Shown here piece by piece: positions 2,701 through 39,181 of a DNA stretch of 46,003 bases. Position numbers and translations under genes: made by a program. Source of the DNA: a virus (Duplodnaviria; Heunggongvirae; Uroviricota; Caudoviricetes); IMG/VR virus record IMGVR_UViG_2562617057_000011, positions 1 to 46,003 of that record. One strand, written 5' to 3'. Each line of letters opens with the position of its first letter. Position 1 is the first letter of the stretch. The notes below the pieces were generated by a model. The model worked only from the letters and a program-made list of their open reading frames with translations. It was not told the DNA's origin and searched no databases.

Positions 2701-3446
2701 GCTTTATCCTCCCATCCGATCACCTGGAAAAGCCCCATCTTCGGGTGATACCAGCGTGTGCCGCGTGGTTCAGCCTCTGACATCATTTGGTGGAACGCCG
2801 CCATAAATGGCTCAAGCTCGACGATAGCCCTGCGAGACAACAGACCGTCCGGAGTCATGAATTCGTGGGTGTCTGTAGGAATTTGATATGCGTTCACCAG
2901 ATTCCGACACTTGGCGTCACTCATTCCACTTTTGGCTACCACCTGGCGGTAACCGACATATCCGGCGCGCATTGTGCCGCGTTTGATGTTCTCCACAGCT
3001 TTGGTGACCGTTTCGATCTTCTTTTCAACATGACTCAGGCGCTTTTGCTGGCGAACGGCATCGGCGGCCATTGCAGCGATCATCTCCATTTCCGTCAGCG
3101 GCGCGTGAGTTCGGAAATAGCTGTTAACCAGTTCGCGCTGAACCTGCCAGGCCAGATCGTCGGTGAAGGATTTCACCAACATCAAATAACCGGATTCGAC
3201 CAGTACAATTCCTGCTGCTGCAAATTTTGAGAAAGTACCGTCAGGGAGGTGTCGACGAATTTCGTCGGAACCTAATTCGAAGTAGTCTTCCCCTTCAATA
3301 AGACGAGACTTGTTTTCGCGGAAATTGCGTCCCGCTGTTCCGTCCGGGCGTTGGTGCACTTCATCAATCATCGCCAGCGTCACCATGCGCTGACCGCGAT
3401 ATTCGATTACCGGAAACTGTTTGTTGTTGATGGTTACAGTATTCAT
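2697..3446 (-). CDS. KilA-N/ORF6N-domain antirepressor-like protein, 249 aa
   Basis: ATG at 3446 with GGAGA Shine-Dalgarno; N-terminal ORF6N/KilA-N-like region; C-terminal ~130 aa paralogous to the C-terminus of the Rha protein at 9715-10428. Confidence 0.8.
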   Translation of the reverse strand: MNTVTINNKQFPVIEYRGQRMVTLAMIDEVHQRPDGTAGRNFRENKSRLIEGEDYFELGSDEIRRHLPDGTFSKFAAAGIVLVESGYLMLVKSFTDDLAWQVQRELVNSYFRTHAPLTEMEMIAAMAADAVRQQKRLSHVEKKIETVTKAVENIKRGTMRAGYVGYRQVVAKSGMSDAKCRNLVNAYQIPTDTHEFMTPDGLLSRRAIVELEPFMAAFHQMMSEAEPRGTRWYHPKMGLFQVIGWEDKA

Positions 3447-3489
3447 TTTTATCTCCAGACAGCCCGGCGTGTAATACCGGGCATATGTA

Positions 3490-4320
3490 TTACTTAACCT
3501 GAATAAATGGTGTGTTGGCACCGCTGGTCATGTACTGCGGCAGTGTGCCGTTCCATTTATTGATGGCTTCCAGCTCCATAACACCGGGGTTCTGGCGCAG
3601 AGCTTCACCGCGTAAACGAATTGCATCGGCTTCGGCCTGGGCTTTTGTGCGAATCGCATCAGCCTGTCCGGCAGCTTCTGCACGCAGCATGTTGGCTTCT
3701 GCTTCGCGTTGTTTAACTTCCTGCTCGCGTTGCAGTGTTTTCTGGTTTGCCGTGACTTTGGCGTTAATGCTGTCGATAACGGTTGGTGGGTACTCTGGCT
3801 TACCCACATATGAGAGGCTCATTACCTGAATACCGATGGGTGTCATTTCTTCCTGGATGTCTTTTAGAGCGGCATCCAGTAATTCAGATTTACCGCCGTC
3901 AATAAATTTGTCGGTGGTCATTTTGCTGGCCAGCCGATTGAGTGCGTCGGCGATCTTCTGGCGCAGGTCGGTGTTGGTAATGTCATCCACGCCTTTGCGG
4001 TAAGTCTGAAACACCGTGGTAACTTTGGATGGATCAACTTTGTAGGCCACGCCGATGTGATAGCCGATGGTTGTGCCGTCACTCATCTGGAAACTGAACG
4101 GTTCATCGTAGGTCTTCATTTGCTTGAAGGTCGGGAAAATGTAAACTTCAGTATTCCAGCCAGTCCAGTAGCGACCAACACCGACCACTTCACCGACACC
4201 TTTGTCGTCGCCCAGTTTGTTGACTTTGATACCCACATTACCTGGTTCAACGCGATCGCAACCTACAAGTCCGAAGACAGCCAGACTGACCGCGAAAACA
4301 AGCGCAATTGTTTTTTTCAT
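3490..4320 (-). CDS. SPFH/band-7 (prohibitin-family) lipoprotein with coiled-coil C-terminus, 276 aa
   Basis: Signal peptide with lipobox LVGC; SPFH-like core; Ala/Gln/Glu/Arg-rich coiled-coil tail; ATGA overlap with the upstream small membrane ORF. Confidence 0.85.
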   Translation of the reverse strand: MKKTIALVFAVSLAVFGLVGCDRVEPGNVGIKVNKLGDDKGVGEVVGVGRYWTGWNTEVYIFPTFKQMKTYDEPFSFQMSDGTTIGYHIGVAYKVDPSKVTTVFQTYRKGVDDITNTDLRQKIADALNRLASKMTTDKFIDGGKSELLDAALKDIQEEMTPIGIQVMSLSYVGKPEYPPTVIDSINAKVTANQKTLQREQEVKQREAEANMLRAEAAGQADAIRTKAQAEADAIRLRGEALRQNPGVMELEAINKWNGTLPQYMTSGANTPFIQVK

Positions 4321-4505
4321 TTTTCCCTCCCGGGGAAAGAAAGACCCTTATAAATGGCATAAATGCAGGGCGGGGTCAGACACGCCAGAGCAAAGCCAGA
4401 AATCACTGCTACCGTATCCTTCATTGATATGAGGGCCGGAACGATTAATCCGTAAATACATGCGATAATTGCCAGTGATATAACTATTCTGAAATAAATG
4501 TTCAT
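4317..4505 (-). CDS. small two-helix membrane protein, 62 aa (ORF track extends to 4538 inside the IS end)
   Basis: Two hydrophobic segments; ATG at 4505 is exactly at the IS target-site duplication; translationally coupled to the SPFH gene. Confidence 0.5.
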   Translation of the reverse strand: MNIYFRIVISLAIIACIYGLIVPALISMKDTVAVISGFALACLTPPCIYAIYKGLSFPGREK

Positions 4506-4549
4506 GTGAGGTGTACTGGCAATAGCGGACACTACCATTTGTTCTTTTT

Positions 4550-5368
4550 TTAAGCAGCCATCTGATGATATTTTTCCCTGAAGGCTGCCGGGGAGATATT
4601 CCCCAGACGAGAGTGACGACGCTGACGATTGTAGAAAATCTCAATGTATTCCCGTATTACTGAGATGGCTTCATCCCGGTTATTAAAACGATAGTGGCTC
4701 AGGCTCTCATTTTTCAGCGTTCCCCAGAAGCTTTCCATCGGAGCGTTGTCGTAACAGTTACCTTTACGCGACATTGATGTTTTCAGACCAAACTGCTCCT
4801 GTATGACCCGGTAATCGTATGCGCAGTACTGTGAACCTCGATCAGAGTGGTGGATTAGCCCGGCAGGTGGGCGCTGGCTCCTGAGCGCCATAAACAGGGC
4901 TTTACCTGTCAGCTCTTTTGTCATGCGCTCTCCCATGGCGTAGCCGACAATTTCGCACGTATAAACATCTTTGATGCCAGCGAGGTACAACCATCCCTCC
5001 TGTGTGGCAACATACGTCAGGTCCGCCACCCAGACCTGATTTGGTGCTGTAGGAGCGAACGTCTGGTTCAGCAGATTTGGCGCAACTGGCAGATTGTGGT
5101 TCGAGTTCGTAGTCGCTCTGAACTTGCGTTTCTGCTTACAGCGTAGCCTTAGCTCCTTACGAAGACGTGCCAGTCGGTCACGACCAACGATGATGCCATT
5201 CTCTGCCAGCTCCGTCTGGAGCCGCCGGGTTCCATATGTTTCGCGAGTGCGGATATGTGCCACCTTAATCTCCAGTTTTAGCCGCTCATCACTTTGTTTT
5301 CTGTCTGAGGGTTCATGCTGTACCCAGTTGTAATAACCGCTCCTGGATACACCAAATACCTGACACAT
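4550..5368 (-). CDS. IS3-family transposase OrfB (integrase core; made as OrfAB by -1 frameshift)
   Basis: DDE-type integrase-like sequence typical of IS3-family OrfB; overlaps the orfA reading frame. Confidence 0.9.
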   Translation of the reverse strand: MCQVFGVSRSGYYNWVQHEPSDRKQSDERLKLEIKVAHIRTRETYGTRRLQTELAENGIIVGRDRLARLRKELRLRCKQKRKFRATTNSNHNLPVAPNLLNQTFAPTAPNQVWVADLTYVATQEGWLYLAGIKDVYTCEIVGYAMGERMTKELTGKALFMALRSQRPPAGLIHHSDRGSQYCAYDYRVIQEQFGLKTSMSRKGNCYDNAPMESFWGTLKNESLSHYRFNNRDEAISVIREYIEIFYNRQRRHSRLGNISPAAFREKYHQMAA

Positions 5369-5403
5369 CGCTTCAATGGGAAATTGTTGTCGCCATTGTT
5401 CGA

Positions 5404-5706
5404 TTAACGCGTATTTTTCAGCGACTCCTGTGCAAAATACGCTGTTGCTTTTTTTAATATATCTCGCTCAAGGCGAGCTTCATTTAACGCCTTACGCAGT
5501 TGCAGAATTTCAGATTCCAGTTCAGCCACCGTGCGGGAACCAGGAGTACCGAGCCCTTTTCTGGCGGCGGTAACCCATTGTCCTAAAGTGCCTTCAGGAA
5601 GGGATAATCGGGAAGCGCCTTCACTGATCGAAAGTTGATTTTCAAGAACCGTTCTGACAGCTTCGGCTTTGAACTCTTTAGAGTAACGTTGGGTTTTTCT
5701 GCTCAT
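5404..5706 (-). CDS. IS3-family transposase OrfA (HTH and leucine-zipper part)
   Basis: 100-aa ORF with HTH and heptad-Leu region typical of IS3-family OrfA. Confidence 0.9.
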   Translation of the reverse strand: MSRKTQRYSKEFKAEAVRTVLENQLSISEGASRLSLPEGTLGQWVTAARKGLGTPGSRTVAELESEILQLRKALNEARLERDILKKATAYFAQESLKNTR

Positions 5707-5832
5707 TATTAGCTCCTTCTGATGCCATTCTATTTCAGGAAGGAGTGTCCGTTAAACTCAGGCTACCTCAATGGTCCTCTTGATGTATTCGGCTTGCCTT
5801 ATTTAATTGCGTCATGGTTAATTTCGTTTACG

Positions 5833-6225
5833 TCAGAATGGTTTTGTTGCCATCAGTTCGTAATATCCGGCGCTCCATGTGTCATATTTTCTGAACCATT
5901 TTTCTGTATACTGTTTCCTGGCGATGAGTCTGCGCAGTCGTCTGATTGTTCGCTGGTGTGCGCGGGTATACTCTGTGGTTGATTCTCCACGTTTCCATAT
6001 CTCATTCCCGTTGAAGATAAAACGCTTGTCAGGATGGCGTTGTCGGAATCCTGAACGTTCAAAAGCGCGGGTGGTCATAAAGAATGCCAGGTAACGAATT
6101 GCCGTTTTTCGGGTGAGGCATTTTTTTGTTCTTCCGTGGCGTGTTACAAAAAATAACGGGCCGACGGGTGTATCATGTTTCTGTAATGCCTGGTCAATGG
6201 CGCTGGCGGTGCGGTTGTCGATCAT
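5833..6225 (-). CDS. hypothetical basic protein, 130 aa
   Basis: ORF with ATGA overlap to the upstream gene; Arg/Lys-rich; no family recognised. Confidence 0.55.
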   Translation of the reverse strand: MIDNRTASAIDQALQKHDTPVGPLFFVTRHGRTKKCLTRKTAIRYLAFFMTTRAFERSGFRQRHPDKRFIFNGNEIWKRGESTTEYTRAHQRTIRRLRRLIARKQYTEKWFRKYDTWSAGYYELMATKPF

Positions 6226-6440
6226 TTCTTTATTTCCCCCGAATAACGTTCATGACTCATTACTTCCCAGTTCCGGCCGTCGTCTTTCGATAACAGCCGC
6301 CAGCGACGGTTAACCTTCAGACTGAGATATCCGTTGCGCTGTATCCGATGCGGGAATATACATCGGCATCTGTACCGCCGCAGGACCAGCAACGCCTGCT
6401 GGTGGACCCACTCAGGAATTCGTGTTGCTGTTAATGTCAC
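6222..6440 (-). CDS. hypothetical protein, 72 aa (start uncertain)
   Basis: ORF in an operon-like array; its 5' end overlaps the upstream gene by 29 nt, so the true start may differ. Confidence 0.35.
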   Translation of the reverse strand: MTLTATRIPEWVHQQALLVLRRYRCRCIFPHRIQRNGYLSLKVNRRWRLLSKDDGRNWEVMSHERYSGEIKK

Positions 6441-6627
6441 TGGTTTCCTCCTGAGCAGGTGCTGTTATCTGATACCCCGCTCTTTCTGCCAGCCATATGA
6501 ATGTATCCATGCTGGCAATCAGCTCTCCATCGCGGACTTTGCAGACATCTGTTACCTGGCCATTTTCAATTGTCATAACGATCTGCACTTTTTCGTGCAC
6601 AACAGATACAGGGGATAAATTAGCCAT
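6412..6627 (-). CDS. hypothetical protein, 71 aa
   Basis: ATG at 6627 overlaps the upstream stop (TGATG); GGAGG Shine-Dalgarno. Confidence 0.5.
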   Translation of the reverse strand: MANLSPVSVVHEKVQIVMTIENGQVTDVCKVRDGELIASMDTFIWLAERAGYQITAPAQEETSDINSNTNS

Positions 6628-8259: not shown

Positions 8260-8916
8260 TCAGAAAATATCCCACCTGGCATCAACCACAACACCTACTA
8301 TTTCGCAATCATTGTCCATTTCTATGATGGGATATTGTGGATTAAGGGGCTTTAGAAACGCCTTCCCCATTTCAGAAATATATTTTTTGAATGTTGCTTC
8401 ATTGGTGGATTTTTTTCTGGCGATGACGTAACACCCTGAAAAAACTTCTTTATCTGGATTGACAAGGATCGACATTCCTTCAGGAAATGTTATTCCTATA
8501 GGCGAAGTCATTGAGTCTCCGTGTACTTCCAGCCAGAAGCCCCTCTCACCAGCGTATTTTACAGAATGCCTCCAATTATCCTGATCATACATGTTGTAGT
8601 CATCACCTGCAGTTGCGAATAATCCTGCCTGAACCCAGTTAATTACAGGGTAAGAGTGTGCTGTGTCTCTCTGGGGACAGCTCTTAACATTATTTTCCCA
8701 ATACTTACCTTTTTCATCTCCGTTCTGAAGCCACTGCGGTGAACACTGCAGTGCCGCTGCGACTTTAAAAAGCGTGTCACCGTTGAAACTTTTTGTAAGA
8801 CCTTGCTCGGCTTTACTGATTGCAACTCTGGTGACCCCAGCTTTTTTAGCCAACGCATCTTGCGTTAACCCAGCTTTTTGTCGTGCGTTGATGAGGCGTT
8901 CACCTAAAGATTTCAT
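8260..8916 (-). CDS. cI: CI-type prophage repressor (XRE HTH plus S24 LexA-like peptidase domain), 218 aa
   Basis: N-terminal HTH, C-terminal S24 peptidase-like domain; ATG at 8916 with AAGGAG Shine-Dalgarno; divergent from a cro-like gene. Confidence 0.9.
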   Translation of the reverse strand: MKSLGERLINARQKAGLTQDALAKKAGVTRVAISKAEQGLTKSFNGDTLFKVAAALQCSPQWLQNGDEKGKYWENNVKSCPQRDTAHSYPVINWVQAGLFATAGDDYNMYDQDNWRHSVKYAGERGFWLEVHGDSMTSPIGITFPEGMSILVNPDKEVFSGCYVIARKKSTNEATFKKYISEMGKAFLKPLNPQYPIIEMDNDCEIVGVVVDARWDIF

Positions 8917-8938
8917 TTTTCTTCTCCTTTCATGGCTG

Positions 8939-8975
8939 CTGATACTAAAGTAACAGAATATCTTGATACTTTGGA
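8939..8975. promoter_or_regulatory. OR-like operator region (divergent promoter region between cI and cro)
   Basis: TTGATACTTTGG at 8964-8975 and TGATACTAAAG at 8939-8950 within the 111-bp cI-cro intergenic region. Confidence 0.55.
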
Positions 8976-9027
8976 TTCTCATGTTTAACATTCTTGGATA
9001 ACAGAGTATCCGGTGTGAGGCTAAAGA

Positions 9028-11375: not shown

Positions 11376-11648
11376 TCTGCAAGTCCGGGACGTTACACTG
11401 TTCCGGCACCTTATAAAACGGGTGCCGGGATTTGCACCCCGGAATTGATCAAGGCGATATATGACGCGCCAGCGTCTTTTTTATCGTCCACGCTCACGCA
11501 CGCCAGAATTATGGTGGGCTGGGCAGGGGAGCCGAAAGGCTCGCCGGTTTCCTTGATCGCCGGTAGTGCAAACCCTGTTCAGTCCGCCACCAGCGAGATT
11601 TGCACCTCCGGTGGTGGAAGTATTTCACCGATCAAGGAGGCTGCCATT
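11376..11648 (+). repeat. structured RNA leader, unit 1 of 3
   Basis: Hairpin 11403-11428, terminator 11463-11482, GAAA-tetraloop hairpin 11529-11542, helix GTGCAAA 11567-11573 with TTTGCAC 11599-11605, second helix CCACCA 11587-11592 with TGGTGG 11610-11615, SD AAGGAGG 11634-11640. Confidence 0.7.
11463..11482 (+). terminator. intrinsic terminator inside leader unit 1
   Basis: GACGC-GCCA-GCGTC hairpin followed by TTTTTT. Confidence 0.55.
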
Positions 11649-11720
11649 ATGGCTACGATCCCAGTTTCCCCATTCCTCAAAATCGAAGTCGTCAACGGTA
11701 AGGCCGTTACTACATCTCTT
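11649..11720 (+). pseudogene. Rha-family gene remnant (first ~24 codons only)
   Basis: ATG at 11649 with MATIP..KIEVVNGKAVTTSL start matching the Rha copies at 12015 and 12671, then diverges; the frame stays open only by running into the next unit. Confidence 0.4.
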
Positions 11721-11829
11721 TTCGGATATCTCAAACTGTTGCGCCTTGCTGGTGTTCCGGGTTATATTTCTCGCGTTGCTGTAAATCCAGCAACCGGGCT
11801 TCGCATCCCGAAACATCACACAGGGCTGA

Positions 11830-11852
11830 CACGCCATAAGCGTGTTTTTTTG
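11830..11852 (+). terminator. intrinsic terminator inside leader unit 2
   Basis: ACACGC-CATAA-GCGTGT hairpin followed by TTTTTT. Confidence 0.55.
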
Positions 11853-12014
11853 TCTACGCACGTCTATTCAATGGCGGCTCAGATGGGAGCTTCTTCGGAA
11901 GCGCCGGTTTTCCCTTGTGTGTCCGGTAATGCGAATCCTGTCTGGGCTGCCACCAATCATGGTTTCGCATCCGTGGGTGGTAGCTGTAAAGCACACACAC
12001 AAGGGGCTGTCACC
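11853..12014 (+). promoter_or_regulatory. structured RNA leader, unit 2 of 3
   Basis: UUCG-tetraloop hairpin 11890-11903, helix ATGCGAA 11930-11936 with TTCGCAT 11965-11971, second helix GCTGCCACC 11947-11955 with GGTGGTAGC 11977-11985. Confidence 0.65.
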
Positions 12015-12377
12015 ATGACTACCACCACTACTCACCCATTCCTCAAAATCGAAGTCGTCAACGGCAAGGCCGTTATTTTCTCTTTGCATGTGGCCTGCCA
12101 CTTTAAGCGCATGCACCAGAACATCGTCGACAAAATCGAGTATCTGAACTGCTCGCGCGAATTTTTTACCCGCAATTTCATACCGGGTACTTACCACATC
12201 TATGACGACTCTCTGCGTGGTTATTACATCACCCTTGATGGTCTGATGCTGCTTCAGCTTGGGTTAAGTCTGCGCACAATGCGGTACTACGAGAGTTGCA
12301 TTGAAGCGTTCCATGAGGCTGAAACCGTCCAGGTGCATTCCGCTTTCCGTCGTCATCAACGGGAGGTGCACCTATGA
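12015..12377 (+). CDS. Rha-family regulatory protein, short form, 120 aa
   Basis: ATG at 12015 after leader unit 2; N-terminal FLKIEVVNGKAV motif shared with the other copies; Rha-like central segment. Confidence 0.6.
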   Translation: MTTTTTHPFLKIEVVNGKAVIFSLHVACHFKRMHQNIVDKIEYLNCSREFFTRNFIPGTYHIYDDSLRGYYITLDGLMLLQLGLSLRTMRYYESCIEAFHEAETVQVHSAFRRHQREVHL

Positions 12378-12384
12378 TCCGCTA

Positions 12385-12670
12385 CCTGAATATTGATTCT
12401 GCAATTCCGGGACGTTACACTGTCTCTGCACCTTATAAAGCGGGTGTCGGGCGTGAGAACCCGGAATTCACCAAAGCGCACAACCGCGCTCTTGCGGTTT
12501 TTTTGTGTCATGAGCAGCATTACGCCCAAATTATGGTGGGGCGTGCAGGGCCAACTTCGGTTGGGCCGGGTTCTTTGGTGACCGGTTTCTCACCCCTGTA
12601 CGTCTCACCACCTATTGCCGTGAGAAGCTTTGGTGGTGAGTTATTAAAAATCACCAAAGAGGCTGCCATC
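12385..12670 (+). repeat. structured RNA leader, unit 3 of 3
   Basis: Terminator 12483-12505, UUCG hairpin 12551-12564, helix TTCTCAC 12587-12593 with GTGAGAA 12620-12626, second helix CTCACCACC 12604-12612 with GGTGGTGAG 12632-12640, SD 12656-12662. Confidence 0.7.
12483..12505 (+). terminator. intrinsic terminator inside leader unit 3
   Basis: ACCGC-GCTCTT-GCGGT hairpin followed by a T7 run; stem differs from unit 1 by compensatory changes. Confidence 0.55.
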
Positions 12671-19903: not shown

Positions 19904-19979
19904 GGCCCTTTAGCTCAGTGGTGAGAGCGAGCGACTCATAATCGCCAGGTCGCTGGTTCAAGTCCAGCAAGGGCCACCA
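19904..19979 (+). tRNA. tRNA with anticodon CAT (Ile2-like, lysidine-type; Met not excluded), CCA encoded
   Basis: 76-nt cloverleaf folded by hand; very similar to E. coli ileX as recalled; anticodon loop CTCATAA. Confidence 0.85.
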
Positions 19980-19980
19980 A

Positions 19981-20054
19981 CCACCACTAGCTCATCCGGA
20001 TAGAGCATCAACCTTCTAAGTTGACGGTGCGAGGTTCGAGTCCTCGGTGGTGGG
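19981..20054 (+). tRNA. tRNA-Arg, anticodon TCT
   Basis: Cloverleaf with acceptor CCACCAC/GTGGTGG, anticodon loop CTTCTAA, T-loop TTCGAGT; no encoded CCA. Confidence 0.8.
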
Positions 20055-20059
20055 CCAGC

Positions 20060-20135
<76 letters not shown>

Positions 20136-20138
20136 TAT

Positions 20139-20213
<75 letters not shown>

Positions 20214-34383: not shown

Positions 34384-37300
34384 TTTGGGGATTGATGCGG
34401 CAGAGTTTAAAAATGAAATTCCCCGTATCAAAAACCTTCTGAATGGTGCAGCCAGCGATGCAGAACGGTCTTCTGCCCGTATGCAGCGTTTTATGGAGCG
34501 TCAGACTCAGGCGGCCCGGCAGACAATGCAGGCGGCTTCTTCGGCTGCAACAGCAGCATCAGCCCATGCGCAGACGGTGGAAAAGAACGCACGGGCTCAT
34601 GAACGCATGGCCCGTGAGGTGGAACAAACCCGTCTGCGCGTGGATGCCCTGAATCAGAAAATGCTCGAGGAACAGGCGCAGGCCAGGGCACTGGCGGAGG
34701 CGCAGGATAAAGCGGCTGCCGCCTTTTATCGCCAGATTGACAGTGTGAAACAGGCCGGTGCGGGGCTTCAGGAATTACAGCGTATTCAGCAGCAGATCCG
34801 ACAGGCCAGAAACAGTGGCGGGGTTGGTCAGCAGGATTATCTGGCGCTGATTTCGGAGATCACGGCGAAAACCCGTGCCCTGACGCAGGCAGAGGAACAG
34901 GCCACCCGGCAGAAAGCGGCGTTTATCCGCCAGCTTAAAGAGCAGGCAACCCGCCAGAATCTGTCGTCTTCTGAGTTGCTTCGCGCCAGGGCGGCTCAGC
35001 TGGGGGTAAGCAGTGCTGCAGAAGTGTATATCCGCAAAATGGAGCGGGCAGGAAAAGCCACACATTCGCTGGGGCTGAAAAGTGCGGCAGCCCGGCGGGA
35101 GCTGGGGGTGTTAATCAGTCAGATGGCGCGCGGCAATTTTGGTGCGCTGAGGGGATCCGGGATAACGCTGGCTAACCGTGCCGGATGGACAGGCGCACTG
35201 ATGTCGCCGAAAGGCATGATGACTGGCGGCGTTATTGGCGGACTTGTCGCGGCGGTCCTGGGTCTGGGTAAAGCCTGGCATGACGGCCGGAAGGAGGGCG
35301 AGGAATTTAACCGTCAGCTGGCGCTGACGGGACATTATGCCGGTGTCACTGTCGGGCAGTTGTGGAAACTCAGCCGGGCCATATCCGGGAATGGTATCAC
35401 GCAACATGCGGCAGCCGGTGCGCTGGCACAGGTGGTGGGCAGTGGGGCATTTCATGGAAACGATATTGGTATGGTGGCGAAAGCTGCCGCACAGATGGAG
35501 CGATCGGTTGGCCAGTCGGTCAGCGATACCATAAATCAGTTTAAGCGGCTGAAGGATGATCCTGTAAATGCCGCGAAGGCGCTGGACAATGCGCTGCATT
35601 TTTTGACTGCCACTCAGCTTGAGCAGATACGCGTCCTTGGGGAGCAGGGGCGGTCCAGTGATGCGGCCCGGATCGCCATGTCTGCGCTGGCAGAGGAAAC
35701 CGGTAAACGCACATCTGATATTGATAATAATCTCAATGCGCTGGGTAGTACGCTGCAAACCTTGTCTGACTGGTGGAAGCAGTTCTGGGATGCGGCCATG
35801 AATATTGGTCGTGAAGACTCGCTGGATGCGCAGATTGATGCGTTACAGGAAAAAATTCAGCGCGCGAAAAAATATCCGTGGACAAACGCCTCCACACAGG
35901 TGGAGTACGATCAGCAGCGTCTTAACGATCTTCAGGAGAAAAAACGCCGGAAGGATTTGCAGGATGCAAAAGCGCAGGCAGAACGGAATTACCAGGAGCA
36001 ACAGAAACGCCGGAATGCTGAAAATGCCGCGCTGAACCGGATGAATGAAACGGAAGCTGCACGACATCAGCGGGAAATTGCGCGTATTAATGCCATGCAG
36101 TACGCCGACCAGGCTGTCAGGGATGCGGCGATACAGCGTGAAAATGAACGTTACGAAAAAGCCATTAAGAAAAATACACGGGCAACCCGTAATGATGAGG
36201 CCACCCGGTTATTGCTGCAGTACAGTCAGCAGCAGGCACAGGTGGAAGGGCAGATTGCTGCTGCCAGACAGTCAGCAGGCATTGCCACTGAAAGGATGAC
36301 TGAAGCGCATAAACAGCTTCTGGCCCTGCAGCAGCGCATCAGCGACCTGGACGGGAAAAAGCTGACGGCAGATGAAAAGAGTGTGCTGGCCCGTAAGAAT
36401 GAGCTGATTCAGGCGCTGACGCTGCTGGATGTGAAACAGCAGGAGCTGCAGAAACAGACAGCGCTTAACGACCTGAGAAAAAAAACGGTTCAGCTGACCA
36501 GCCAGCTGGCAGACAAAGAACGTGCACTGCGTGAGCAGCACAATCTGGATATTGCCACTGCAGGTATGGGGGATAAGCAGCGGCAGCGCTACCAGGCACA
36601 GTTGCGCATCCGGCAGGAATACCGGCAACAGTTGCAACAGCTTGAGAATGACAGTCGCCAGAAAGGCACTTACGGGACGGAGGACTACCGGAGGGCTGAG
36701 GAGGTGCTGAAGGGGAGCCTGAAGCGACAACTGAATGAAAACAAACGCTACTGGCAGGAACTGGAAGTGGCGCAGGGCGACTGGAAAAACGGTGCCATGC
36801 GGGCGTTTCAGAATTTTACGGCGGATGCGGATAATGCGGCGGGAACGGCAGAACAGATGTTTACAGTGGCATTCAGCAGTGCCGGTAATGCACTGGCGAC
36901 ATTCTGTACCACCGGTAAGCTGAATTTTAAATCCTTCACCTCTTCCCTGTTGTCAGATATGGCCAGAATTATGGCACAGATGGCCATGATGCAGGCGGTA
37001 AAGGGCGTCGGTTCTTTATTCGGCTTCACGACTAATGCTGATGGCGGTGTTTACCAGTCTGCTGATTTGAGTCGCTACAGTGGCACGGTGGTTAACCGTC
37101 CGACGTTTTTTGCTTTTGCAAAAGGCGCGGGTGTGATGGGGGAAGCGGGACCTGAAGCCATTCTGCCACTGCGTCGCGGTGCTGATGGTAAGCTGGGGGT
37201 TGTGGCGGATACTGGTGGTTCAGGCATGGTGATGTTTGCCCCGCAGTACAACATTGAGATCAATAACGATGGCACGAACGGGCAGATAGGTCCGGCTGCC

Positions 37301-37396
37301 CTGAAGGTGGTTTATGACCTCGGGAAAAAAGCGGCCGCGGACTTTATGCAACAGCAGGCCCGTGATGGTGGCCGGTTAAGTGGAGCATACCGGTAA
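34355..37396 (+). CDS. H: tail tape-measure protein (gpH-like), 1013 aa
   Basis: Long Ala/Gln/Arg-rich coiled-coil protein at the lambda H position; GGAGGTG Shine-Dalgarno. Confidence 0.95.
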   Translation: MDQIANLVIDLGIDAAEFKNEIPRIKNLLNGAASDAERSSARMQRFMERQTQAARQTMQAASSAATAASAHAQTVEKNARAHERMAREVEQTRLRVDALNQKMLEEQAQARALAEAQDKAAAAFYRQIDSVKQAGAGLQELQRIQQQIRQARNSGGVGQQDYLALISEITAKTRALTQAEEQATRQKAAFIRQLKEQATRQNLSSSELLRARAAQLGVSSAAEVYIRKMERAGKATHSLGLKSAAARRELGVLISQMARGNFGALRGSGITLANRAGWTGALMSPKGMMTGGVIGGLVAAVLGLGKAWHDGRKEGEEFNRQLALTGHYAGVTVGQLWKLSRAISGNGITQHAAAGALAQVVGSGAFHGNDIGMVAKAAAQMERSVGQSVSDTINQFKRLKDDPVNAAKALDNALHFLTATQLEQIRVLGEQGRSSDAARIAMSALAEETGKRTSDIDNNLNALGSTLQTLSDWWKQFWDAAMNIGREDSLDAQIDALQEKIQRAKKYPWTNASTQVEYDQQRLNDLQEKKRRKDLQDAKAQAERNYQEQQKRRNAENAALNRMNETEAARHQREIARINAMQYADQAVRDAAIQRENERYEKAIKKNTRATRNDEATRLLLQYSQQQAQVEGQIAAARQSAGIATERMTEAHKQLLALQQRISDLDGKKLTADEKSVLARKNELIQALTLLDVKQQELQKQTALNDLRKKTVQLTSQLADKERALREQHNLDIATAGMGDKQRQRYQAQLRIRQEYRQQLQQLENDSRQKGTYGTEDYRRAEEVLKGSLKRQLNENKRYWQELEVAQGDWKNGAMRAFQNFTADADNAAGTAEQMFTVAFSSAGNALATFCTTGKLNFKSFTSSLLSDMARIMAQMAMMQAVKGVGSLFGFTTNADGGVYQSADLSRYSGTVVNRPTFFAFAKGAGVMGEAGPEAILPLRRGADGKLGVVADTGGSGMVMFAPQYNIEINNDGTNGQIGPAALKVVYDLGKKAAADFMQQQARDGGRLSGAYR

Positions 37397-37725
37397 TGGA
37401 GACGTTTCACTGGAAAGTGCGCCCGGATATGAATGTGGTATCAGAGCCGAAAGTGGTGACAGTGAAGCTGGGCGATGGTTATGAACAGCGTCGTGCGGCG
37501 GGACTGAATAACCAGTTGTCGACTTACAGCGTGACGATACGTGTTCGTAAAGGTGAACACCCACCTTTAAAAGCCTTTCTGGAACGGCACGGTGGCGTCC
37601 GCGCATTTCAGTGGACGCCACCTTATGACTGGAAGCCGATCAGGGTGGTTTGTCGTAAATGGTCGGCAAGCGTGGGGGCGTTGTGGGTAACCATAACGGC
37701 AGATTTTGAACAGGTCGTGGCATAG
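37396..37725 (+). CDS. M: minor tail protein gpM-like, 109 aa
   Basis: Size and position as lambda M; TAATG overlap with the H stop. Confidence 0.9.
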   Translation: METFHWKVRPDMNVVSEPKVVTVKLGDGYEQRRAAGLNNQLSTYSVTIRVRKGEHPPLKAFLERHGGVRAFQWTPPYDWKPIRVVCRKWSASVGALWVTITADFEQVVA

Positions 37726-37734
37726 GAGTCTCTG

Positions 37735-38433
37735 ATGCAGGATATTCCACAGGAAACACATCATGAGACGACACGCCTCACTCAGTCAGCCCAGGTGGTG
37801 CTCTGGGAAATCGATCTGACAGTGGTCGGTGGAGAACGTTATTTTTTCTGTAATGAGCAGAACGAAAAAGGTGAGCCGGTCACCTGGCAGGGGCGGCAGT
37901 ATCAGGCATACCCCATTCAGGGGTCGGGGTTTGAACTGAACGGCAGGGGCTGTGCTGCCCGTCCGACACTGACGGTCTCTAACCTGCACGGCATGGTCAC
38001 CGGTATGGCGGAAGATCTGCAGAGTCTGGTCGGCGGAACGGTGGTCCGGCGTAAGGTTTACGCCCGTTTTCTGGATGCGGTGAACTTCGTCAACGGAAAC
38101 AGCGACGCCGATCCGGAACAGGAGGTGATCAGCCGCTGGCGCATCGAGCAGTGCAGCGAACTGAGCGCGGTCAGTGCCTCTTTTGTGCTGGCCACACCAA
38201 CGGAGACGGATGGCGCGGTTTTCCCGGGGCGTATCATGCTGGCGAATACCTGTATGTGGACTTACCGTTCTGATGAGTGTGGTTACACGGGCAGGGCAGT
38301 GGCTGACGAGTTCGACAAACCAACGACGGATATCCGGAAGGACAAATGCAGCAAGTGTATGCGCGGGTGTGAGTTGCGCAACAATACCGGTAATTTCGGC
38401 GGTTTCCTTTCCATCAATAAACTTTCTCAGTAA
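37735..38433 (+). CDS. L: minor tail protein gpL-like, 232 aa
   Basis: Size and position as lambda L; conserved Cys cluster near the C-terminus. Confidence 0.9.
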   Translation: MQDIPQETHHETTRLTQSAQVVLWEIDLTVVGGERYFFCNEQNEKGEPVTWQGRQYQAYPIQGSGFELNGRGCAARPTLTVSNLHGMVTGMAEDLQSLVGGTVVRRKVYARFLDAVNFVNGNSDADPEQEVISRWRIEQCSELSAVSASFVLATPTETDGAVFPGRIMLANTCMWTYRSDECGYTGRAVADEFDKPTTDIRKDKCSKCMRGCELRNNTGNFGGFLSINKLSQ

Positions 38434-38437
38434 ATCC

Positions 38438-39181
38438 ATGACACAGACAGAATCAGCGATTCTGGCGCACGCCCGGCGATGTGCGCCAGCGGAGTTGTGC
38501 GGCTTCGTGGTGAGAACGCCGGAGGGGGAAAGATATTTTCCCTGCGTGAATATCTCCGGTGAGCCGGAGGCGTATTTCCGGATGTCGCCGGAGGACTGGC
38601 TGCGGGCAGAGATGCAGGGTGAGATTGTGGCGCTGGTCCACAGCCACCCCGGTGGTCTGCCCTGGCTGAGTGAGGCTGACAGGCGGCTGCAGGTGCAGAG
38701 CGATTTGCCGTGGTGGCTGGTCTGCCGGGGTGAGATTCATAAATTCCGCTGTGTGCCGCATCTTACCGGGCGGCGCTTTGAGCACGGGGTGACGGACTGT
38801 TACACGCTGTTCCGGGATGCTTATCATCTGGCGGGGATTGAGATGCCGGATTTTCATCGCGGGGATGACTGGTGGCGTCACGGTCAGAATCTCTATCTTG
38901 ACAATATGGAGGTGACGGGTTTTTACCGTGTCGCACTGACAGAGGCACAGCCGGGCGATGTGCTGCTGTGCTGTTTTGGTTCATCGGTGCCGAATCATGC
39001 CGCCATTTACTGCGGTGACGGCGGGCTGCTGCACCATATTCCTGAACAACTGAGCAAACGAGAGAGGTACACCGACAAATGGCAGCGACGCACACACTCC
39101 CTCTGGCGTCACCGGGCATGGCGCGCATCTGCCTTTACGGGGATTTACAACGATTTGGTCGCCGCATCGACCTTCGTGTGA
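38438..39181 (+). CDS. K: tail assembly protein gpK-like (MPN/JAMM plus NlpC/P60-like domains), 247 aa
   Basis: HSHP-containing MPN-like motif and Cys/His hydrolase-like C-terminal domain; position as lambda K. Confidence 0.9.
   Translation: MTQTESAILAHARRCAPAELCGFVVRTPEGERYFPCVNISGEPEAYFRMSPEDWLRAEMQGEIVALVHSHPGGLPWLSEADRRLQVQSDLPWWLVCRGEIHKFRCVPHLTGRRFEHGVTDCYTLFRDAYHLAGIEMPDFHRGDDWWRHGQNLYLDNMEVTGFYRVALTEAQPGDVLLCCFGSSVPNHAAIYCGDGGLLHHIPEQLSKRERYTDKWQRRTHSLWRHRAWRASAFTGIYNDLVAASTFV

Follow-up and report, generated by a model that had tools for sequence, protein, structure and literature searches.

An IS600 copy separates the Shine-Dalgarno sequence of a small membrane-protein gene from its start codon in a lambdoid prophage

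The prophage module and the inserted element

The window (the whole stretch of DNA that was analysed, 46,003 nt in length) is a lambdoid prophage that begins at its integrase end beside yecE. The gene for a LexA-family repressor is located at 8260..8991, and the genes of the early-left operon include a ParE-like gene, a small-membrane/SPFH module, ORF6N anti-repressor-like and beta-clamp-like genes, and several uncharacterised genes; replication and morphogenesis genes were also found in the prophage. The ParE-like toxin domain gene (PF24732; 6222..6440, minus strand) overlaps the upstream gene for a 71-aa protein (phrog_340; 6412..6627, minus strand) in the same operon, and the two may be a toxin-antitoxin pair situated just upstream of the IS-prone interval described below. 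Three tandem copies of the Hfq-binding sRNA isrK and, behind them, a C4 antisense RNA were detected at 11406..12615 (plus strand; Rfam RF01394 and RF01695, all above the gathering score): a repeated RNA module of the immunity/anti-repressor-control type. In addition, four phage-borne tRNA genes are present at 19904..20213 (plus strand): Met(CAT), Arg(TCT), Thr(TGT), and Gly(TCC).

The module that was the focus of this study consists of two genes on the minus strand. The first (4317..4505) encodes a 62-aa protein that is hydrophobic throughout and was assigned to phrog_1130 ("membrane protein"); its start codon is intact, and no Shine-Dalgarno sequence now precedes it. The second (3490..4320) encodes a 276-aa SPFH/Band 7 lipoprotein (PF01145, E value of 6e-31; lipobox LVGC), the start of which overlaps the stop codon of the small gene (ATGA). 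An NfeD domain, as carried by the upstream partner in SPFH/NfeD operons, was sought in the 62-aa protein; there was no Pfam match at E values up to 0.01, and phrog_1130 was the sole match. RefSeq calls the identical 62-aa protein (WP_001028875.1) at both filled and empty sites. In searches with the PADLOC defence models, the two module proteins and most of their neighbours had no match, and the single match at E values up to 0.01 was a weak one (0.008, REase_II) for a neighbouring 119-aa protein; a role of the module as a defence system was rejected, since neither of its proteins had a PADLOC match. A literature search on SPFH proteins and prophages yielded nothing bearing on this module.

A complete insertion sequence of 1264 bp occupies 4507..5770 (minus strand), with its transposase co-directional with the early-left operon of the prophage. 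Members of the IS3 family are approximately 1.2-1.55 kb in length, and IS600, which belongs to the IS3 group of this family and was originally found in Shigella sonnei, is 1264 bp in length. In a megablast search of 5,426 complete E. coli genomes, the element was 100% identical over its full length of 1264 bases to copies annotated as "IS3-like element IS600 family transposase", and is therefore IS600 itself, of which the window holds one copy only. The earlier note on this DNA had described a complete 1264-bp IS3-family element with TGAGGT-type ends, and this description can now be narrowed to IS600. The ends, TGAGGTGTACTGGCAATAGCGGACACT (from 4507) and TGAGGTAGCCTGAGTTTAACGGACACT (read inward from 5770), are imperfect inverted repeats matching at 19 of 27 positions (six of six at the tips); both start with TGAGGT, in keeping with the TG...CA terminal rule of the IS3 family. 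The left repeat (IRL; 5744..5770, minus strand) lies upstream of orfA, and the right repeat (IRR; 4507..4533, minus strand) adjoins the membrane-protein gene and includes a -35-like TTGCCA at 4522..4517. The two-ORF plan of the IS3 family is also present: orfA (5404..5706, minus strand) encodes 100 aa with an HTH_Tnp_1 domain (PF01527, E value of 1.5e-20), and orfB (4550..5368, minus strand), in the -1 frame relative to orfA, encodes the DDE integrase core (rve; PF00665, E value of 3e-26) and related domains. A -1 shift at a slippery A7G motif (5448..5455, minus strand) would give a 385-aa OrfAB fusion, and the RefSeq product, annotated with "programmed frameshift", is also 385 aa. IS3-family elements transpose through a circular intermediate with a promoter at its junction (-35 of IRR and -10 of IRL); when such a junction was modelled for IS600, the resulting site was TTGCCA-18-TAGCCT, the -10 of which matches at three of six positions.

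Target duplication, native junction, and distribution

On the plus strand, ATG lies directly outside both ends of the IS, at 4504..4506 (gene-proximal copy) and 5771..5773 (distal copy). A 3-bp repeat alone has a probability of 1/64 by chance. It was regarded as a real target-site duplication because the element is 100% identical to IS600, because a 3-nt target sequence has been reported for IS600, a member of the IS3 family (PMC9397093), and because empty sites in related prophages hold exactly one copy of the triplet. The length of 3 bp is that expected for IS600 and the IS3 family, and was also found for other mapped IS600 copies (AAC, TAC, CAG, and CAT). The earlier note placed the element exactly at the start codon, with ATG as the direct repeat; the duplication stands, but on the gene strand it reads CAT and overlaps the start codon by two bases only. 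The start codon is located at 4505..4503 (minus strand), with its A and T from the gene-proximal repeat and its G from the next base; it is intact and abuts the IS, and the insertion point lies between the Shine-Dalgarno sequence and the ATG.

After the removal of the IS and one copy of the repeat, the gene strand reads ...CAAGAGGACCATGAACATT. A 1200-nt query prepared in this manner was covered by at least 80% in 83 complete E. coli genomes, and the matches listed (the best 25 of the 83) were all single unbroken pieces, including four at 99.8%. By alignment, the uninterrupted junction is ...GAATACATCAGGAGGACC|ATGAACATT, or in short form ...CAGGAGGACC|ATGAACATT. Comparison with IS-free relatives, as proposed in the earlier note, thus returned the same junction and start codon as had been reconstructed there. 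The full uninterrupted junction region had no copy in the phage database, in which the module half alone matched and similarity to the query set in 3-4 nt upstream of the small-gene ATG. In phiP27 and Fraca, the ATG is found at the aligned position in spite of unrelated upstream sequences, which further supports the proposed start codon. The uninterrupted module of these and other phages (the phiP27 L05 region, Stx2 phages, P88, and Fraca) has the same two genes, the same overlapping stop and start, and an aligned ATG of the small gene; however, the small gene there has a Shine-Dalgarno sequence or is translationally coupled to an upstream gene, with no IS in between, and the window differs in this respect.

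The identical filled junction was found in CFSAN029787 (L002), RMDEC332, RMDEC364, VL46, and the NCBI assemblies of L010 and L012. CFSAN029787 is an enteroinvasive E. coli (EIEC) O96:H19 strain (PMC7283534); its filled site is in a prophage adjoining yecE, and an empty site is present in the same genome in a prophage adjoining mlrA. The unmasked parts of L010 (GCA_009738325.1, CP024694.1) match the window with 100% identity, and this genome, too, carries an empty paralogue (L009). Outside the IS, the window differs from the loci of RMDEC332 and CFSAN029787 by 0.4-0.6%. The IS of CFSAN029787, inserted at the same site and labelled in RefSeq only as "IS3 family transposase", has 20 substitutions relative to the IS600 of the window, clustered in orfA (window 5505..5678); this was probably caused by gene conversion by a related IS after insertion.

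The filled sites also carry a variant of the Shine-Dalgarno sequence. Window position 5780 (T on the plus strand and A on the gene strand) is a G-to-A substitution relative to AGGAGGA. Filled sites with a readable Shine-Dalgarno flank (the window, L002, and L012) read CAAGAGGACC, the left flank of L010 being N-masked, whereas the uninterrupted or otherwise-interrupted copies examined, including L009, all read CAGGAGGACC; therefore, the substitution is specific to the IS-bearing lineage. When the AAGAGG variant was sought in an empty allele, none of 106 full-length uninterrupted junctions from complete E. coli genomes matched exactly, and the best had one mismatch.

Translation and transcription across the insertion

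In the earlier note, both the small gene and the coupled SPFH gene were considered to be cut off from their ribosome-binding site. We predicted the energy of the duplex between the 3' end of 16S rRNA and the 20 nt preceding each start. For the native ATG of the small gene, the values were -10.3 kcal/mol in uninterrupted relatives (AGGAGG), -5.8 kcal/mol in the restored allele of the window (AAGAGG), and +0.7 kcal/mol at present (...ACACCTCAC). The displaced native Shine-Dalgarno sequence, AAGAGGA (5775..5781, minus strand), is now 1267 bp upstream of this ATG. The small gene is therefore without its ribosome-binding site, as had been claimed. On the other hand, the claim did not hold for the SPFH gene, which has kept a Shine-Dalgarno sequence of its own, GGGAGGG (4325..4331, minus strand), four bases (AAAA) before its ATG; with a predicted energy of -10.8 kcal/mol, this gene is independent of the lost site.

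At the right end of IS600 (window 4536..4552, minus strand), an ATG is found 11 nt after the stop codon of orfB, and its frame is open outwards, so that in-frame insertions can yield N-terminally extended ORFs. In the window, this ATG, at 4538, adds an in-frame extension of 11 codons (MVVSAIASTPH; 4506..4538, minus strand) to give an ORF of 73 aa (4317..4538), consistent with the earlier observation that the first 11 codons are derived from the IS end. No Shine-Dalgarno sequence precedes this ATG, and the predicted pairing is -0.9 kcal/mol.

Promoters and terminators were searched for on the gene strand by a consensus scan between 3400 and 6300. The insertion had also been proposed to sever both genes from upstream leftward transcription. 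This proposal was not supported: IS600 is co-oriented with the early-left operon, and no terminator-like site was found by the scan on the minus strand of 3400..6300, an intrinsic terminator within the IS being rejected on the same result. The sole promoter-like site on this strand in the interval was that of IS600 itself, TTAACG-17-TAGAAT (5727..5755, minus strand), located in and beside IRL, namely, at the end of the IS distal to the gene. A hybrid outward promoter at the gene-proximal end was considered and rejected: TTGCCA is present, but the -10 candidates, CATTTA, ATTTAT, and TTTATT (16-18 nt), all failed the scan, and a transcript from such a promoter would begin within the small ORF. 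Rho-dependent polarity over the poorly translated orfB, to which such a scan is blind, could still lower the transcription of both downstream genes.

The identity, boundaries, and orientation of the IS, the duplication, the native junction, and the loss of Shine-Dalgarno pairing were shown from the sequence, and the following account is the best explanation that we can offer for them. A functional-looking IS600 appears to have moved into a lambdoid prophage at yecE, within its early-left operon, in a host that is probably of the enteroinvasive E. coli/Shigella type. The duplicated CAT spans the last base before the start codon of the 62-aa gene and its first two bases, leaving the coding sequence and the ATG untouched and moving the Shine-Dalgarno sequence upstream. 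The effects on expression, as judged from sequence features, are most likely confined to translation. Since the Shine-Dalgarno sequence is now 1267 bp away, translation initiation of the small gene is probably strongly reduced. The SPFH gene retains its own strong site, and both genes can in principle be reached by transcripts from upstream and from the weak transposase promoter of IS600. The insertion would then have been passed down in a small clade of prophages. Taken as a whole, we consider it likely that the insertion is an inherited translational knock-down of the 62-aa protein alone. Some of the protein could still be made through a leaderless-like or otherwise Shine-Dalgarno-independent start at the native ATG, or by ribosomes that reinitiate at the IS-borne one. 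The weaker Shine-Dalgarno allele of the window (AAGAGG), which may have arisen before or after the insertion, also counts against this account.

Recurrent insertions, alternative explanations, and significance

Insertions in related prophages were mapped on an empty locus (L001), in which the small gene starts with its ATG at 4602 and positions 4202-4603 correspond approximately to window 4504..6172 with the IS removed. Forward copies of IS600 were located at 4202-4204 in VL7S7 (L007; duplication TAC), at 4516-4518 in VL40 (L006; AAC), and at 4601-4603 in the window and its relatives (CAT); that of L017 has a rearranged left flank and a right flank starting from 4374. A forward IS1 with a 9-bp duplication (GGCAAGCCG) is present at 4576-4584 in L014, 18 nt before the ATG. 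Besides the site of the window, there were thus at least four independent insertions (three IS600 and one IS1), all co-directional, within 400 bp upstream. Reverse copies of IS600 were located at 3501-3503 (CAT; L011) and 3789-3791 (CAG; L016), an IS629-type element (GAAG; L016) and IS911 (VL7S7, L007) lie within the SPFH gene, and further IS copies are present farther downstream in related loci. The upstream gene for a 130-aa protein (phrog_1886; 5833..6225, minus strand), which is intact in the window, was hit by IS600 in three related prophages. In L017 (GCA_002949935.1, 1..3272), IS600 is located within this gene and the other side of the element has tail genes matching window 36568..38585, indicating an IS600-mediated inversion or deletion in that prophage. 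In O26 and other STEC genomes, IS600 ends adjoin kil of other lambdoid prophages, which is another case of an early-left operon. The duplications (CAT, AAC, TAC, CAG, and CAT) and their flanks were inspected for a target consensus of IS600, and no evident motif was found; the local G+C content around the mapped insertions (0.37-0.48) was unremarkable. A 9-nt match between the small gene and IRR (ACTGGCAAT), seen by eye, was dismissed: its chance was roughly estimated at 3%, and it is not beside the insertion point.

IS-rich Shigella/EIEC genomes accumulate prophage insertions anyway, and we give an even chance to neutral decay, in which many IS hits, this one among them, collect in dispensable prophage DNA with no selected consequence; the module may simply be heading for loss. 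Consistent with this explanation, the same 5-kb region in related prophages has IS600 in both orientations, IS1, an IS629-type element, and IS911, the SPFH gene is disrupted by IS in L016 and L007 and truncated in L004 (with no IS identified there), and none of the loci listed in the group with 92-94% identity, from non-invasive strains, is interrupted. However, the insertions are clustered: five of approximately 12 IS events fall in 402 of approximately 5,060 bp (binomial P of 0.0016, or approximately 0.02 after a crude post hoc correction for the interval), and all five point into the module (P = 0.06). The 62-aa sequence is also identical in every filled locus, which argues against decay but perhaps reflects recency only. 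The sample is small, and the look-up behind these events favoured varied contexts. This clustering suggests local preference or selection, and is a lead rather than a result.

A stronger version of this idea is that insertions into the interval of approximately 400 bp are favoured in Shigella/EIEC prophages, whether by selection for silencing of early-left genes (that for the 130-aa protein or that for the small membrane protein), by selection for IS-driven transcription of the SPFH module (constitutive in lysogens), or by a local target preference of IS600; we consider this to be improbable. It is likewise unlikely that the co-directional IS, by its transposase promoter or by a hybrid promoter with the -35 of IRR, drives constitutive transcription of the SPFH module in the lysogen in spite of repression of the early-left promoter. 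In favour of this, the five insertions within 400 bp upstream of the module (four IS600 and one IS1) all point into it, no terminator was predicted from the IS promoter to the module, and TTGCCA is available in IRR; however, the best -10 (TTTATT at 18 nt) is poor, lacking the A expected at position 2, and did not pass the scan, the start of a hybrid-promoter transcript would fall within the small ORF, and five of five in orientation gives a P of 0.06 only. The transposase promoters of the IS3 family are, moreover, generally weak. That the gene is now expressed, by termination-reinitiation after orfB, in a 73-aa form extended at its N-terminus by IS-encoded residues is very improbable: the ATG at 4538 is in frame, close behind the orfB stop codon, and its frame stays open beyond the IS end, but it has no Shine-Dalgarno sequence, few ribosomes terminate at orfB because it is translated only via the frameshift, and the 62-aa form is the one annotated by RefSeq.

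The preferred explanation, a translational knock-down of the small gene, concerns an ordinary insertion of a known element, such as is typically seen in Shigella-like E. coli, and an event of a textbook kind that is already annotated in several RefSeq genomes. The element itself does not differ from IS600 (100% identical nucleotide sequence over 1264 bp, TG...CA imperfect repeats, orfA and orfB with a -1 frameshift, and 3-bp duplication), and the insertion site alone is particular. Classical operon insertions (IS1, IS2, IS3, and IS5 in gal, bgl, ampC, etc.) are polar or activating, and an IS before a gene can uncouple native signals or provide read-out transcription or an end-borne -35. In contrast, the window gave no evidence of a usable hybrid promoter, and the predicted effect is on the translation initiation of one small gene. 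In STEC O121:H19, an IS600 insertion in lacZ alters expression and is clonally inherited, and several IS600 copies have accumulated, unexplained, in one gene, iee (PMC9397093). The insertion in lacZ involves the same element and is clonally inherited, as is that of the window, but is located within the coding sequence near its 3' end and is opposite to lac, whereas that of the window is in the gap between the Shine-Dalgarno sequence and the ATG and is co-directional.

The recurrent co-directional insertions could point, if weakly, to selection on the SPFH module of prophages. The locus itself is a clean natural case in which an IS separates a Shine-Dalgarno sequence from an intact start codon, and some strains, in which the filled site coexists with an empty paralogue, provide an internal control for effects on translation and read-through.
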